This document shows positions 521 to 23,029 of a DNA stretch of 23,390 nt, piece after piece (position 1 is the stretch's first letter; every line of letters begins with the position of its first letter). The translations under genes and the position numbers were made by a program. The stretch is taken from positions 1 to 23,390 of the forward strand of contig CBDETK010000011.1 of the NCBI GenBank assembly GCA_965242865.1, given 5' to 3'. The stretch comes from Candidatus Latescibacterota bacterium. Lineage in GTDB: Bacteria; Latescibacterota; UBA2968; UBA8231. Below the pieces are notes generated by a model. That model worked only from the letters and a program-made list of their open reading frames with translations. It did not search any database and was not told the DNA's origin.

Positions 521-1023
521 CATGCCCGAGCCAGCGGCCAGTCAAATTTCTTTTCGCCTACCTCATACATAAAGTCTAACCCAATATCGGGGTCGCCCAC
601 GCGCTCATTTTCGCGTTGTCGTTCGGGCGTCCAAACGGCGTCCGGTTTCAACAAGTTGAACTTGCGCTTGGAGACTTCCAACAACCATTCACCGGCCTTA
701 TCAACGGTGCTCTGTCCTGCCGTCCCCGTGAAGCGATAGCCCGTATCGGCCCATGCGCCGCCGTCCTCCCGCGAGAGAAGATAAACCGACACGGTAGCCG
801 GCCCCAGGTCTTCCGGTAGGGTCTGCCGTTGGGCGTCCGAGAGGGCGATAGCCACCGCCAACGACGGCTCCGTACCCGCCTCCAGCGTGTGCTGCGGGAA
901 ACGGACGTCGAGCAGCCGGCCCCCACCGCGATACACCTCGCTCTCAAACGTAATGTTTTGGGGGAACGTCGCCAAGCGTAGGGATGTTCCGATCTTTAAT
1001 AAGATAGCCGCGAATTGCATCAC
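520..1023 (-). CDS. Tail-tip / hub-associated minor tail protein
   Basis: Second gene after the tape measure. N-terminal 'LRLAT...ITFESEVYRGGG' and C-terminal 'WTPERQ...DIGLDF...W' resemble the small hub proteins found at this position. ATGA coupling to the upstream gene. Confidence 0.6.
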   Translation of the reverse strand: MMQFAAILLKIGTSLRLATFPQNITFESEVYRGGGRLLDVRFPQHTLEAGTEPSLAVAIALSDAQRQTLPEDLGPATVSVYLLSREDGGAWADTGYRFTGTAGQSTVDKAGEWLLEVSKRKFNLLKPDAVWTPERQRENERVGDPDIGLDFMYEVGEKKFDWPLARA

Positions 1024-5325: not shown

Positions 5326-5361
5326 GTTTCAATCCACTTCCGCCTTAGCCCGCGGAAGAAC
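5326..5361 (-). CRISPR. Solitary CRISPR-repeat-like unit 1 (type I-C-like; not an array)
   Basis: GTTCTTCCGCGGGCTAAGGCGGAAGTGGATTGAAAC: 36 nt, 7-bp stem CTTCCGC/GCGGAAG, then TGGATTGAAAC. Confidence 0.85.
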
Positions 5362-14079: not shown

Positions 14080-14105
14080 AAAAATCTCCTTGTCTGGTAG
14101 TTAGG

Positions 14106-14834
14106 TTAGCTCGAAATCTCGACGACCCAGTCGTTGATATGACTGGTCGGCTGCACAGTGAACGACGTTTGCAGGTTGCCCCCGTCCGGCGCATCCGCGC
14201 CGGGCTTGCCAAACCGCGCCGCATACCGGACCCGCAGCTTGGGCGTGACCACCTTGAAATCGGCATCCGCCGCCACCGACGTGGGCGGAGCCAGCGTGCT
14301 GCGGCTGCCATCCGCGCTATACTGAATAATGCCCGTCCCGCCGCTCCCCCGCTCAACAACCCACGGAGTAGCCCCCTTGCCGTCGTCCTGCAGCTCGTCA
14401 ATGACATACGCTTTCCCGTCAATGATAAGCACCGCACCGCGCCCCACATCGTCAAACGGGATGTCAGGCGAACCCACAAGCGTTACAATGCCCGTGCCGG
14501 CAATCGCCGCCGTTACGCCGCTCGCACTGTTGTTATCAAAGAACTCAGCCTGTGCGGTCGTGAACTGAACATTGACCAGGGTCCCCTTGATCGCCGCATC
14601 CCGCACAAAACGCCACGCCGGATGAACGGGGTTATAGAGCGACGTAATCGTGACGGGCGCGACCTCCGGTAGGTCCGTCGAAGCCAAGCTGTCCTTGAAC
14701 GTTTGGATGGTCTCGCTGTTCAGGTCGCCGCCCCCCTCGCTGTGCGACTGCACCCCCGGTAACGACTCATACGTACCACGAATCTGAACGGAAACCTCCG
14801 CCCCTTGTACGGGTATGTTGATGCTATCTGCCAT
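14106..14834 (-). CDS. Major tail (tube) protein
   Basis: AGAGGAG RBS. Tube-like N-terminal half ('YESLPGVQS...ITSLYNPVHPAW') and C-terminal strands flank an inserted beta segment. Confidence 0.7.
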   Translation of the reverse strand: MADSINIPVQGAEVSVQIRGTYESLPGVQSHSEGGGDLNSETIQTFKDSLASTDLPEVAPVTITSLYNPVHPAWRFVRDAAIKGTLVNVQFTTAQAEFFDNNSASGVTAAIAGTGIVTLVGSPDIPFDDVGRGAVLIIDGKAYVIDELQDDGKGATPWVVERGSGGTGIIQYSADGSRSTLAPPTSVAADADFKVVTPKLRVRYAARFGKPGADAPDGGNLQTSFTVQPTSHINDWVVEISS

Positions 14835-14855
14835 GGTAGAACTCCTCTTTTGGTT

Positions 14856-15179
14856 TTAAGTGGCGGCTACACAAAACAACGTCAGCCACCGTCGATCAAA
14901 CTCTTTGACCCAGCGTATCGACCACGTGCGCCCCACATCATCCACGACATACCAGCGGGGCGTCATAGCCCGCAACGTGGGGCTCCAACGAAAACGAAAC
15001 GTGGTCTGCCATTGCTCGACGTCCACCCCCACCTCCTCCGTGTCGCGCCCCCCGCGGTCTATCCGCGTAGCAAAGACAATATGCTCCACCGGGGTATTGC
15101 GCTGCGGGTCACCGTGCGATGTCGTACCCGTCACCGCACCGGGTTCGTAGAGTCGGATGCGACGCGTACCCTCGGCCAT
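14856..15179 (-). CDS. Head closure / head-tail adaptor (SPP1 gp16-like)
   Basis: 107 aa after the connector. 'RIRLY', 'TTFRFRW' and 'GRTWSIRWV...RRWLTLFC' pattern. Confidence 0.8.
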   Translation of the reverse strand: MAEGTRRIRLYEPGAVTGTTSHGDPQRNTPVEHIVFATRIDRGGRDTEEVGVDVEQWQTTFRFRWSPTLRAMTPRWYVVDDVGRTWSIRWVKEFDRRWLTLFCVAAT

Positions 15180-15183
15180 GGCG

Positions 15184-15753
15184 TTAGTCTAACGCGGCGT
15201 GAAGGGGACGCAACGGCCCCAACAGCCGATCCAGCGCACGAAAATCATTCGGCAGGCCCCCGCCGTTGTATAGCTGCCGCACCAGCAAGACCAACGCCTG
15301 CGCCAGCACCGTATCTTTGGGGCGACGACCCAGCGTCAACCCGAGGGTCACATTCAGACGCCAGCGCAGATCCCGAGCATGGGCCGGCCACCCGGCCGGC
15401 GGCGCGTTCACGACAACAACATCCGTCGTCGGCGTCACCGTCGTCTCCACATCACCCCAATCATCCGTTTCAATCCACTCTCCCTCCGAAGAAGGAGAGA
15501 AATACGCGATGCTCTGAAGACTCTTGAACCCTCGCGCCTCAAACACAAGCGCATTCATCGCGCCCATGGGCGGGTTCGTCGAAAGAACACTCGGCCTATC
15601 CACCAGCGGGTAGTCTATGCTCGCCTCGACCCACCCCACCGCCGACGCCAACTGCTCTAACAGAAGCGTATCGTGGTAGGTCTCATCCACCGCTAAACGC
15701 AATTCTAAGCGCAAGCGATCTAACGAGCATATATCGGTAGGCTGAGCGACCAT
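15184..15753 (-). CDS. Head-tail connector (HK97 gp6-like, long form)
   Basis: 'SLDRLRLELRL...DTLL..QL.SA...VE' and 'QALVLLVRQLYN...LLGPLR'. Confidence 0.85.
   Translation of the reverse strand: MVAQPTDICSLDRLRLELRLAVDETYHDTLLLEQLASAVGWVEASIDYPLVDRPSVLSTNPPMGAMNALVFEARGFKSLQSIAYFSPSSEGEWIETDDWGDVETTVTPTTDVVVVNAPPAGWPAHARDLRWRLNVTLGLTLGRRPKDTVLAQALVLLVRQLYNGGGLPNDFRALDRLLGPLRPLHAALD
15467..15502 (-). CRISPR. Solitary CRISPR-repeat-like unit 3, inside the connector CDS
   Basis: TTTCTCTCCTTCTTCGGAGGGAGAGTGGATTGAAAC: stem at positions 4-25 (9 bp, TTCG loop) and the identical 3' tail. Confidence 0.75.
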
Positions 15754-15759
15754 TTGGCG

Positions 15760-16173
15760 TTAGGAGCGCGTAGGCTTGGGCTTGGGACGCTTAGCGTCGC
15801 GGGTCTCCACCTCGACGCCCTGCCGACGCGCAAGCTCGACCAATTTTCGTGGCGTATCTCGATGCGCCAACAGACCCACGTCATGGATTCGCAACAAATT
15901 AACCAGCATCTCTTCCTCCGTTTCTTGGCGCACCGCCAGACCGCGCGACACCATATCGTCCACCTCAGAGGCCGGCACCAGCACTAACTGACCGCGCTTA
16001 TACGGACAGCCCCCCGGGGCCACCCAATGGGTACGAAGGCGCACCCGCTCCAGCGGAATATCCTCCTTGCGCTTCTCACCCTCCAAGCGGTGCTCCTCCA
16101 GCTTGGCGCACGCTTCTTGGTGGCGACGCTCTTTCTCACGCGCCGCCGCCAACGCCATCGTCATCGTAGGCAT
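15760..16173 (-). CDS. Post-capsid hypothetical protein
   Basis: GAGGAGAGGGG RBS. 'YKRGQLVLVP..EVDDMVSRGLAV' resembles small domains often encoded after HK97-like capsid genes. Confidence 0.65.
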   Translation of the reverse strand: MPTMTMALAAAREKERRHQEACAKLEEHRLEGEKRKEDIPLERVRLRTHWVAPGGCPYKRGQLVLVPASEVDDMVSRGLAVRQETEEEMLVNLLRIHDVGLLAHRDTPRKLVELARRQGVEVETRDAKRPKPKPTRS

Positions 16174-16188
16174 ACCCCTCTCCTCTCT

Positions 16189-16224
16189 GTTTCAATCCAC
16201 TCCCGACTTAGCCCTCGGGAGAAC
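16189..16224 (-). CRISPR. Solitary CRISPR-repeat-like unit 2
   Basis: GTTCTCCCGAGGGCTAAGTCGGGAGTGGATTGAAAC, 32/36 identical to unit 1, starting 16 nt after the capsid stop. Confidence 0.85.
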
Positions 16225-16240
16225 TGGGCTTACGCCCGCC

Positions 16241-17710
16241 CTACTGCGCCTTGATCTTCAGTTTGACGATCGCCTCACAAACCGCGCCGTCTTTGACGCC
16301 GATATACCGCCCGTCCAAGCGAGCAAACGCAACGACTTTCTCCGAAAAGTTGGACGCCGTGCCGCTATCCCAGAAGCGGAAGAACAACATGCCGTTGACC
16401 ATACGCTCCATGTAATAGCTGCCATTGCCAAAGACCAGCGGGTACGTGTTATCCCCCACGTCATCCATGTTCGGATTCAACTGGTACGGATAGCCCAAGA
16501 TCGTGCCCGGCGTACCATCCCGAAGGCTCGGCAACCAGATCGGATTATCCTGCGTGTCCTTGATCTTCGTCACGGTCTTGAGCGCATCGTAACTCATGCC
16601 CCAACCAATACGTCCCCCTTCCTCGGTCGTAAAGCCGTACATGGGGTCCTCGCGCCCTTCCTTGTAAGCCGGATCGATCGCGTAGACCATATCAACGATG
16701 TCGTCAAAGCCAATCGTGCGCGACGCCGCACTCGTCAGCCCCTCTTTCGCGCCCGTGACCAACCCCTCCGGCTTCGTATCCGCCGCACCCGCCGCCGTGG
16801 TGACCGTCAACTCCTTGTTCTTCAAGCGAGCAATACGCGCCAAGCAGATGTCCTGCATCTCGGGGATACCGCCATTCTCCAAGATGGTATCCGTCTCAAA
16901 CTCCATCGTGATCGGGATGAAATCGGACGTATAGGTGTGCGCCTTCAGGACCAGCGTAGTGATGTTCGGCGCATCCACATCGTTGATAGCCGAACCCTCC
17001 GCCGACAAGCGACGACCCATCTGAGCGGTCGGATCCATCTGCATAATGCGGATGTCTTGCCCGGTCTCCGTAACACGCGTCCGAACAAAGCTGCCCCACC
17101 CGCCAAAAGCCTTCAGACGGTGTACCAGCCAGTTGGGATACTGAACGGCAATCGACTCTTGCCCCGTAGCCGCATCGCCCGCCACCAACCCCACCAGCGG
17201 AACGCGCGTAGCCGCCACCACAGGCGCCTTCACAAACAAGGGCGTCGGCGACTTCCACTGCGTGCTCTGCCACCCCTCAAGGTCGCTCCCATGCAGCTTG
17301 TGAAACTCGGCCATGCTCTCCTCAGACGACTGCAACCCCTCGTCCCGAAGACCGCCCCCCTGCGACATCTTGCCCGCAAAATAGTTCTTCCAACGCATAC
17401 TATCATGCGTTCGCAGCGCCATCGGATCGGGCAACCGATTCTCAGGACGCAACCGCTCCAACGCATCCAAGTCGCCGCGCAAGCTGTCCAACCGACGACC
17501 GAGGAACCCGTGCTCGTAGTGCAGAGCAAGATGCTTCTCCGCCATCCCCTCCACCGCACCGCCCTCAAACTTGATGCGCTTCTCGCGGTTCATGTCGTTC
17601 AACTTCTCGGTGACGTCGTCATACTCGGCCCGAACTTTGGCCTCCTCCGTCAACGTCTCATCGAACGTCTTTTTGTCCCACTTGCTAAAGCGGGATTTGG
17701 GAACTGTCAT
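16241..17710 (-). CDS. Major capsid protein, HK97 fold
   Basis: N-terminal coiled-coil delta domain, 'KIKDTQDNPIWLPSLRDGTPGTILGYPY', 'LVFGN' and 'FARLDG'. Start set at ATG 17710 (GGAGG RBS, TAATG coupling). Confidence 0.95.
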   Translation of the reverse strand: MTVPKSRFSKWDKKTFDETLTEEAKVRAEYDDVTEKLNDMNREKRIKFEGGAVEGMAEKHLALHYEHGFLGRRLDSLRGDLDALERLRPENRLPDPMALRTHDSMRWKNYFAGKMSQGGGLRDEGLQSSEESMAEFHKLHGSDLEGWQSTQWKSPTPLFVKAPVVAATRVPLVGLVAGDAATGQESIAVQYPNWLVHRLKAFGGWGSFVRTRVTETGQDIRIMQMDPTAQMGRRLSAEGSAINDVDAPNITTLVLKAHTYTSDFIPITMEFETDTILENGGIPEMQDICLARIARLKNKELTVTTAAGAADTKPEGLVTGAKEGLTSAASRTIGFDDIVDMVYAIDPAYKEGREDPMYGFTTEEGGRIGWGMSYDALKTVTKIKDTQDNPIWLPSLRDGTPGTILGYPYQLNPNMDDVGDNTYPLVFGNGSYYMERMVNGMLFFRFWDSGTASNFSEKVVAFARLDGRYIGVKDGAVCEAIVKLKIKAQ

Positions 17711-18480
17711 TATAAGAACCTCCATTCGCCGGCGTTATCGCCGTATAGGTTATAATACTGCATCATCTGTTCCTGCCGAACCCTCTCCGCCTCAGCCCGC
17801 AACGTGCTTTCTGATTCCTCCCCCGGCTCGTCGATCGCGACCTCAATCACCCTATCGGCCAACCCCACCTCCACCGCCTCTTCCGCGCTATACCACGTCT
17901 CCTCACGAAGCGCCGCCTGCACCTCCTCCAACGAGGAGTTGGTCATGCGCTTCGCATACAAGCCCGCGACCTCGTCGTTCATCTTCCGAGCGGTATCGAC
18001 GATCTTTTGGACGGCCTCCACGTCGCCGCGCAAAACCAACTGCGCGCCGTGAATCATCACCGAGGTCATAGCCGAAAGAGCGATGTCGCTGCCCGTTATC
18101 ATAATGAGCGAAGCGGCACTCGCGGCCATGCCATCGACCTGCACGTTGACCTTATCGCCCTTCTTCTTGCGCTCGCTGATCAGGTTCAGGATCGCACTCG
18201 TTTCAAAAATGTCCCCGCCCGGCGAGTTGATCCGAATGAGCACGTCCCCCGTAATCGCGTCAAGCTGCTCTTGGAAAATTTGGGCCGACATCACCGAATC
18301 ATCGCCCCACCAAGCGCGGAGGAATTCGGCATCGGCATGATTCATGATTTCTCCATAGAGAAGTATTTCATTATCACGATCACGAGCGAGACTCACCTTC
18401 GCGGGCTGATACTTCGCCCAGACATCGGGCGAGATGTTGCTGAACCGACGACGAAGTAAAGCCTTTAGTTTCTTGTCCAT
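17710..18480 (-). CDS. ClpP-type prohead maturation protease
   Basis: 'RINSPGGD', 'DGMAASAAS', 'MIHG' and 'ETWYSAEEAVEVGLAD'. Confidence 0.95.
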   Translation of the reverse strand: MDKKLKALLRRRFSNISPDVWAKYQPAKVSLARDRDNEILLYGEIMNHADAEFLRAWWGDDSVMSAQIFQEQLDAITGDVLIRINSPGGDIFETSAILNLISERKKKGDKVNVQVDGMAASAASLIMITGSDIALSAMTSVMIHGAQLVLRGDVEAVQKIVDTARKMNDEVAGLYAKRMTNSSLEEVQAALREETWYSAEEAVEVGLADRVIEVAIDEPGEESESTLRAEAERVRQEQMMQYYNLYGDNAGEWRFL

Positions 18481-22950: not shown

Positions 22951-23029
22951 TGGAGCGCGAGGCGGGACTCGAACCCGCGACCGCGGACTTGGCAAGCCCG
23001 TACTCTACACCAAACTGAGCTACTCGCGC
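22951..23029 (-). tRNA. tRNA-Gly(GCC)
   Basis: GCGCGAG/CTCGCGC acceptor stem, U discriminator plus CCA, TAGCTCAG D arm, CGGGC-TTGCCAA-GTCCG anticodon arm and GGTTCGAGTCC T arm. Confidence 0.95.

Follow-up and report, generated by a model that had tools for sequence, protein, structure and literature searches.

Solitary copies of CRISPR repeats carried by phages are an established means of RNA-based counter-defence. According to the available text of PMC10651486 (Camara-Wilpert et al. 2023), such solitary repeat units (SRUs) act as RNA anti-CRISPRs (Racrs), and the type I-C example, RacrIC1, is carried on the same bicistronic RNA as AcrIC5. The Racr search described in that text masked open reading frames (ORFs). 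The present analysis concerns unit 3, a repeat-like hairpin in a 23,390-nucleotide (nt) stretch of DNA (the window), which is the whole 23.4-kb contig C11 (CBDETK010000011.1) of the Candidatus Latescibacterota bacterium assembly GCA_965242865.1. Unit 3 is a lone type I-C CRISPR repeat copy, set in frame and in sense orientation within a tailed phage's gene for a gp6-like head-tail adaptor. The assembly comprises 13 contigs (6.0 Mb), including two siblings of the window contig, C2 and C4, and the chromosome, C13.

Like the Racrs in the published account, unit 3 is a single phage-borne CRISPR-repeat-like hairpin that matches the system type of the host and is one of several units in its phage lineage, and like RacrIC1 it sits on a messenger RNA (mRNA) with a protein-coding gene. 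Racrs, as described there, are small non-coding RNAs with their own promoter, whereas unit 3 is in frame inside a late structural gene. It has the Racr trait of a solitary, virus-borne, repeat-like unit but occupies codons 84-96 of the adaptor instead of an intergenic position. Over 14800-16500, scanning for promoters and terminators gave no promoter-like site and nothing close to unit 3. Racrs often neighbour acr genes; beside unit 3, no acr gene was recognised in family scans of the neighbouring ORFs, which were run without an anti-CRISPR library. Phage solitary repeats and mini-arrays are already known; what is new here, by comparison with the available published text, is a high-confidence unit inside a coding sequence, a class excluded from the published search.

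Type I-C repeats, in the available part of PMC8524198, form a stem-loop with 2-nt 5′ and 11-nt 3′ overhangs, the latter identical across species, and are processed by Cas5c, an enzyme that reads the 11-nt tail together with the base of the stem. For the Bacillus halodurans enzyme (BhaCas5c), the same source reports recognition of the U-G-G just past the cut, of the 3′ overhang, and of the stem base, the loop and the 5′ overhang not being read. Unit 3 has this build, a stem-loop flush with an 11-nt 3′ overhang that starts U-G-G, and its tail is identical to that of natural arrays (...GGAGAGTGGATTGAAAC). The repeats of PMC8524198 have a 7-nt stem and a 5-nt loop, whereas unit 3 has a 9-bp stem and a 4-nt loop, is solitary, and is not part of a periodic repeat-spacer array beside cas genes. 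The features concerned, all on the minus strand of the window, are the following.

16241..17725, minus strand: major capsid protein gene (PF05065, E 1.5e-18), immediately upstream of unit 2
16189..16224, minus strand: unit 2, a solitary repeat in the intergenic gap that separates the major capsid gene from the 137-aa ORF
15760..16173, minus strand: 137-aa ORF without a recognised function, between units 2 and 3
15184..15753, minus strand: gp6-like head-tail adaptor gene, 189 aa, with unit 3 in codons 84-96
15467..15505, minus strand: unit 3, a solitary type I-C-like CRISPR repeat within the adaptor gene (first called as the 36 nt at 15467-15502)
15478..15499, minus strand: hairpin of unit 3, 22 nt, with a 9-bp stem CUCUCCUUC/GAGGGAGAG and a UUCG loop
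15467..15477, minus strand: tail of unit 3, UGGAUUGAAAC, 11 nt, covering codons W93, I94, and E95 and the first two letters of T96
14856..15179, minus strand: head completion (head closure) gene, downstream of the adaptor (PF05521, E 1.6e-4, under the curated cut-off)
5326..5361, minus strand: unit 1, an intergenic solitary repeat whose upstream sequence also precedes a mini-array on C4

The minus-strand RNA of 15467-15502 reads UUU[CUCUCCUUC]UUCG[GAGGGAGAG]UGGAUUGAAAC, with the stem arms in brackets, or UUUCUCUCCUUCUUCGGAGGGAGAGUGGAUUGAAAC unbroken. It folds into a 9-bp stem (one G-U pair) with a C(UUCG)G tetraloop, 3 nt before the stem and 11 nt after it; the minimum free energy is -14.4 kcal/mol, and 8 of 200 dinucleotide shuffles fold equally well or better. 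The codons TAT TTC TCT CCT TCT TCG GAG GGA GAG TGG ATT GAA ACG encode residues 84-96, YFSPSSEGEWIET. Homology with sister units on C2 runs past the 36-nt call, reaching 3 nt further 5′ on the RNA, through GUAUUU, and taking in the Tyr84 codon, so the unit is 39 nt long and spans 15467-15505. Units 1 and 2 share the 3-nt lead and the 11-nt tail of unit 3, their stems being 7 bp and their loops 8 nt long, and all three units lie on the coding strand. Unit 3 is single both in the window and on C4, has no spacer periodicity, and its nearest neighbour is 722 nt away. The initial annotation had described a 36-nt unit with a 9-bp stem and a C-UUCG-G loop spelled by connector codons, aligned in register with units 1 and 2 and ending as they do on the 3′ side; the letters and the fold bear out both statements, as they do a spacing of roughly 720 nt between units 2 and 3 with the 137-aa ORF enclosed (722 nt by count, the agreement concerning the spacing only). 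The CRISPR direct-repeat families of Rfam gave no match (cmscan of the whole window, E up to 1), a transfer RNA (tRNA) being the sole match to Rfam.

On counts, unit 3 is more than a chance resemblance, and chance is very unlikely. Base composition predicts 0.0053 occurrences of the exact 11-nt tail in the window, and a flush stem of at least 9 bp is found at 0.35% of window positions. A 14-mer with up to 2 mismatches has three copies in the window against 0.14 expected, a number that none of 100 shuffles reaches. Across the assembly, the exact tail together with a flush stem of at least 6 bp occurs 11 times, always on C2, C4, or C11 (63.7 kb together), with no occurrence on the ten other contigs (5.93 Mb). 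The 12-mer GTGGATTGAAAC is present 14 times, of which 12 are on the same three contigs; of the other two, one falls within a host-array spacer and one at another chromosomal site.

The chromosome carries two CRISPR arrays, of which array A adjoins type III genes and array B (C13:3522935-3525848; 41 repeats of GTCTCCCCTTGCTTTGGTGAGGGGAGCGGATTGAAAC, the repeat ending in CGGAUUGAAAC) adjoins cas3, cas5c, cas8c, cas7c, cas4, and cas1, that is, a type I-C operon. There is one Cas5c in the assembly (C13:3531218-3531805), and no match to the Cas6 model TIGR01877. The phage units all agree in the tail and in stem pairs 1, 2, and 5, while stem pairs 3, 4, and 6 change on both sides (CTCC/GGAG, CTCT/AGAG, CTTC/GAAG), and the loops range from 3 to 10 nt. 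This variation agrees with the recognition pattern of Cas5c, in which the tail and stem base are fixed and the loop is free, and counts for a type I-C repeat; the mimicry is of type I-C repeats in particular, which refines the initial reading of a CRISPR repeat mimic. The cut of Cas5c in unit 3 is predicted between 15478 and 15477. The base just past that cut is where phage and host part: all 12 phage units on C2, C4, and C11 read TGGATTGAAAC (UGG), whereas the host array, and every array match listed outside this assembly in the host family, reads CGGATTGAAAC (CGG).

The gene that contains unit 3 stands, like the other genes of its module, on the minus strand of an HK97-type structural module, in the order HNH endonuclease, small and large terminase, portal, ClpP-type protease, major capsid protein, 137-aa ORF, 189-aa ORF, head completion protein, tail genes, endolysin, and tape measure. 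The adaptor gene is thus placed between the capsid and head-completion genes. The 189-aa protein itself (P0001) has no Pfam, PHROG, or NCBIfam match (PF05135 being considered at E up to 0.01). At E up to 0.001, exhaustive searching with phmmer gave 127 proteins, most of them 180-200 aa long and aligned end to end, and among the 41 homologues that were aligned, 21 match PF05135 (Phage_connect_1, gp6-like head-tail connector; best E 2.2e-6). A word-indexed search returned one relative, the C4 copy (98% identical), the next best protein in phmmer being only 40% identical. An AF2 model built on the homologue alignment has a pLDDT of 89.7, and its top Foldseek matches are neck chains of RcGTA, the Rhodobacter gene transfer agent (6toa_D, E 1.1e-7, TM 0.60), and other phage neck proteins. 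Because homologues match PF05135 and the model matches neck adaptors, the 189-aa ORF appears to be one real adaptor gene with unit 3 well inside it. The assignment of a repeat mimic to a head-tail connector gene thereby holds up, through the 21 of 41 homologues and through the likeness of the model to the RcGTA neck adaptor.

Within the adaptor, unit 3 falls on a beta-hairpin of the model (strands 76-86 and 92-96). A further expectation, that connector homologues would reveal an insertion of about 12 aa at this site, failed, since the alignment of the 41 homologues shows a 6-residue deletion instead. The family reads Y-W-x-P-x-G-x-L-R-x-x-P-D-G-x-I where this protein, six residues shorter, has Y-F-S-P-S-S-E-G-E-W-I, with F-S-P-S aligned to the family motif Y-W-S/T-P. 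By column of the alignment (41 sequences), position 84 is Y in 39, 85 is W in 35 and F in 3, 86 is T or S in 30, 87 is P in 21, and 94 is I in 26; at positions 91-92, the family has L in 23 and R in 27, whereas the adaptor here has the G and E that form the 3′ arm. No other part of the protein is conserved as poorly as this site: compared with each of 14 homologues of less than 50% identity, it has 1-3 identical residues in 11-13 aligned positions, whereas the flanks reach 20-41%.

The lead and 5′ arm of the unit (G TAT TTC TCT CC) coincide with the family-conserved codons, and an ancestral TAT TGG TCN CCN would, by inference, match the unit at about 9 of 11 letters. Such overlap of the 5′ end with the Y-W-S/T-P codons suggests microhomology-guided capture. 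Two of the three unit reading frames are open, and unit 3 has no in-frame stop where a host-type repeat in the same frame has a TGA. The letters suggest, as the simplest origin, that an intergenic unit was copied in at the microhomology and replaced a variable hairpin, the stop-free version surviving: a unit of the CTCTC subfamily would have been copied into the gene where the Y-W-S/T-P codons already resembled its 5′ end, and the stem variant that persisted would be the one without an in-frame stop. Evolution in place from the old codons may be an alternative origin.

The family of units on the three related phage contigs, to which unit 3 belongs, numbers at least 12. C4 (28.4 kb) and C2 (11.9 kb) are 84-99% identical to C11 in the longer common blocks, with one 260-nt block at 72%. 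The subfamily of unit 3 comprises C2:2879-2914 and C2:3720-3755, the latter being the same as C4:5549-5584, and these share with unit 3 the 5′ GTATTTCTCTC and the 3′ GGAGAGTGGATTGAAA. At C4:27026-27137, a 76-nt tandem duplication covers the end of the capsid gene and unit 2, one copy having an extra GATTGAAAC, while at C2:2840-2960 two units abut, with the same ~30 nt of a gene 3′ end duplicated on either side. C11 5326-5401 corresponds to C4 12400-12325 at 93% (the sequence common to unit 1 and the C4 mini-array), and at the place that matches unit 1, C4 holds a different cassette. Since they are gained, lost, duplicated, and swapped between siblings, the units are mobile cassettes in this lineage. 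With variable stems and loops and a fixed tail, the set also forms a natural mutational series for the requirements of Cas5c.

The mini-array at C4:12365-12543 (plus strand) consists of a unit-1-like repeat, a 36-nt spacer, a repeat with the host stem-loop but UGG, a 35-nt spacer, and a decayed repeat, followed by a hairpin and T-run that, by eye, look terminator-like. The host stem-loop is reproduced in two repeats of this mini-array. Spacer 1 matches window positions 845-880, in a 167-aa ORF, at 31 of 36 nt, and C2 and C4 itself at 30 of 36, and the match is flanked by GGA and not TTC. It could be an old spacer against relatives or a regulatory guide. The locus resembles the viral CRISPR mini-arrays that PMC11656645, in its available part, places in inter-virus competition, and unit 1 shares the sequence that precedes it; unit 3 differs from such arrays in having no partner repeat at spacer distance, its nearest unit being the one 722 nt away. 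The units are also like the phage crRNA-like regulatory RNAs outlined in 10.1101/2024.10.29.618823 (crRNA, CRISPR RNA), in which phage-borne repeats load host Cas proteins, and the partial match of spacer 1 to phage genes (30-31 of 36) without an adjacent TTC is what a regulatory guide of that kind might show. In contrast to those RNAs, as that source describes them, unit 3 shows no connection with a guide of partial match or with a target promoter.

As an observation apart, the units C2:2357-2397 and C4:4294-4334 end 2 nt before the ATG of an ORF of 150-odd aa whose product is helix-turn-helix-like by eye; an mRNA that starts at a Cas5c cut in such a unit would therefore be nearly leaderless.

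The stem of unit 3, which differs from those of units 1 and 2, had raised the question of a second host repeat as its model. The stem base and tail of unit 3 (CTCTCC...GGAGAGTGGATTGAAAC) recur in natural arrays at 10 loci in public genomes, among them Anaerolineales and other Chloroflexi metagenome-assembled genomes, and viral contigs with this combination hold three arrays and two solitary units, the latter intergenic-looking by ORF layout. The exact unit-3 33-mer is absent from metagenome_contigs and viral_contigs, and the unit with any loop of 3-6 nt is absent from metagenome_contigs; in the 75 other genomes of the host order, neither unit 3 within 3 mismatches nor the CTCTC...GAGAG class was found. 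Unit 3 is identical to a natural 37-nt repeat on viral contigs at 29 of 37 columns and to host repeat B at 29 of 38, the latter comparison giving 26 of 38 for unit 2 and 26 of 39 for unit 1. By these letters, unit 3 is the closest of the window units to the host's own type I-C repeat, with which it also shares a long stem and a 4-nt loop.

Sequencing reads aligned over 14100-17800 gave five joints with four distinct inserts of 24-36 nt between unit-3-like copies, in all four runs (three samples, one study); the alignment threshold was 80%, and the table does not give the repeat letters. Arrays in these runs built of the unit-3 repeat were considered and have been withdrawn as firm evidence, the host array-B repeat itself aligning to unit 3 at 80.6% over 36 columns, which is at that threshold. 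The repeat-spacer-repeat contigs may be host-type arrays of other strains; against this, there are one or two such contigs per run, and the inserts are not among the 40 array-B spacers by eye.

Codon choice was assessed by drawing 200,000 synonymous samples with the peptide fixed and the codon usage of the phage. The tail was kept in 8.4% of these, a stem of at least 7 bp in 9.5%, and both in 0.8%, and the unit employs codons that are rare in the phage (TCT 0.10, CCT 0.12, GGA 0.04, GAA 0.23). Selection at the nucleotide level shows weakly in these figures. The unit is unchanged in the C4 copy of the adaptor gene, in which about 10 positions out of 570 differ from C11. Among the listed contigs from the four DNA runs containing the phage, those that cover unit 3 carry no other letter inside it (four of four runs).

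The reading that best accommodates these data, held here tentatively, is that unit 3 is a Racr-like decoy for Cas5c carried in late mRNA. Transcription of the late structural operon would present the hairpin and UGGAUUGAAAC on a presumably abundant mRNA; Cas5c would bind, probably cut between 15478 and 15477, and stay on the 11-nt handle, where it would nucleate Cas7 on phage RNA lacking both a true spacer and a 3′ repeat. With units 1 and 2 acting alongside, Cas5c and Cas7 would be drawn away from host crRNAs and the few Cascade parts of the host tied up, as the available text of PMC10651486 describes for Racrs. Counted in favour of a decoy are the type I-C architecture, enrichment on phage contigs, sense orientation, a co-assembled type I-C host, the sibling mini-array, the Racr precedent, codon choice, the stop-free frame, and persistence. 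If unit 3 is active, repeat mimics can overlay protein-coding sequence, catalogues of such elements are incomplete, and a structural gene is doubly constrained.

Several points weigh against a decoy. Late mRNA means late timing for counter-defence, and a cut would sever an essential mRNA. A stem of at least 9 bp arises in 6% of the synonymous samples, the codon-choice result is equally expected after a recent copying-in of DNA, and the unchanged 36 nt on C4 shows nothing because the two genes differ at so few positions. Recognition by the Cas5c of this host is not assured, since the units read UGG and the arrays of the host family CGG. The overlap with the Y-W-S/T-P codons and the 5′ lead shared with sister units suit microhomology capture free of function, and the authors of the search tool, in the available text of PMC10651486, treated intragenic matches as probable false positives.

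Nearly as likely as a decoy is a tolerated neutral capture, in which the phage's own CTCTC-subfamily unit, or an array repeat, was copied in by illegitimate recombination or gene conversion and has no role at the RNA level. The resemblance of TAT TGG TCN CCN to the GTATTTCTCTCC lead would seed the event, and about 18 codons of a variable beta-hairpin would become 12, the new stretch being by luck in frame and free of stops. The ancestral codons would already resemble the lead, since the family consensus at the site is Y-W-T/S-P (Y 39 of 41, W 35, T/S 30, P 21). The sister units with common 5′ and 3′ ends (C2:2879-2914 and C2:3720-3755), the low conservation of the site and its hairpin position in the model, the traffic of units between sibling contigs, and the two open frames of three all fit a capture of this kind. 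What it explains less well is that a perfect 9-bp stem and a perfect 11-nt tail have been retained, that a conserved L-R was exchanged for the G-E of the 3′ arm, and that the sense orientation is the same as that of the other two window units; a recent neutral event would be compatible with all of these points. If unit 3 is inert, it is a record of units moving by microhomology into places that resemble them.

A stronger form of the decoy proposal is doubtful. It holds that unit 3 is a working RNA anti-CRISPR or Cas5c sensor truly overprinted on an essential structural gene, with the loop remodelled (L-R to G-E, six residues lost) so that late mRNA would carry a Cas5c site and, with unit 2, would yield a 722-nt handle-bearing RNA able to soak up many Cas7 subunits. 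Were it true, intragenic repeat mimics, filtered from surveys, would form a hidden class of phage counter-defence.

Improbable, in comparison with a decoy or a capture, is Cas5c-dependent processing of the mRNA, the model of the initial annotation. Cuts by host Cas5c at units 2 and 3 would release 722 nt of RNA, beginning with the 11-nt handle and running through the 137-aa ORF and adaptor codons 1-83 to a hairpin at the 3′ end. The 137-aa gene would then differ in stability or translation, and adaptor output would fall in type I-C hosts. The 722-nt spacing of the two units suits this model, as do the position of unit 2, whose end is separated by 15 nt, including a Shine-Dalgarno-like stretch rich in purines, from the start codon of the 137-aa ORF, and the C2 and C4 unit that ends 2 nt before an ATG. 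Hairpins just past major capsid genes often fix transcript ends, which also counts for processing. A cut within an essential gene would, however, give a non-stop 5′ fragment, and the phage would rely on a defence protein that is missing from many hosts. No function is recognisable for the 137-aa protein, and the duplication of unit 2 on C4 has no apparent processing purpose.

Less probable again is a role at the DNA level, with unit 3 serving as a patch of homology to CRISPR arrays or other units for recombination (cassette exchange, spacer capture, or array integration). The C4/C11 alignment blocks break at unit 2 and just past the adaptor gene, duplications lie beside units, repeat-spacer-repeat contigs align on unit 3 in all four runs, and one host spacer (spacer 5 of array B) came from DNA overlapping a unit tail. 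Yet 36-39 nt is short for homologous recombination, the host repeat is identical at only 29 of 38 columns, the common sense orientation of the three window units would not be needed, and no breakpoint falls at unit 3 itself, C4 and C11 being collinear across it. Chance resemblance from the codons of an ordinary peptide is very unlikely: S-P-S...E-G-E is self-complementary at codon positions 1 and 2, and for that reason 6% of synonymous versions give the 9-bp stem, but the expectations for the tail (0.0053 in the window) and for a flush stem of at least 9 bp (0.35% of positions), the 5′ lead common to unit 3 and its sister units, and the confinement of all 11 exact units to phage contigs speak against it.

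None of the 23 ORFs scanned in the window was recognised as a cas gene. The 137-aa ORF has no family match in profile scans and yielded, from the Atlas, leads only at 0.75, under 0.9; like it, the 68-aa and 78-aa ORFs near unit 1 had no family match in a scan that was run without an anti-CRISPR library.

Some features of the host chromosome also touch on the repeats. Decayed host-type repeats lie at C13:3527369-3527422 and 3528138-3528173, by the cas1 and cas4 genes, and a lone 9-bp hairpin followed by CGGATTGAAAT lies at C13:1560197-1560233, far from the arrays; these may be regulatory crRNA-like units of the host. Spacer 5 of array B (C13:3525491-3525526) ends, after an A-rich run, in GTTTCAATCCACTCTG, the reverse complement of the unit tail and stem end, and has no match to C11, C4, or C2 beyond those 15-16 nt. 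To judge from these letters, the host once acquired a spacer from DNA overlapping such a unit. In the comparison of host spacers with the small contigs, none matches C11, C4, or C2. Spacers 36-38 of array B match C9, C12, and C6 (27-32 nt, 93-100%), each twice and ~10.4 kb apart, and on account of this recurrence, the three represent further mobile elements that came out of assembly as tandem copies and that the host targets.

Elsewhere in the window, a tRNA-Gly (GCC) lies at 22951-23029 (minus strand), upstream of the HNH and terminase genes. Between 10190 and 12730, long arrays of diverged 75-81-nt (~26-aa) periodic repeats run inside ORFs of 879 and 734 aa, which presumably encode a repetitive tail or fibre protein.

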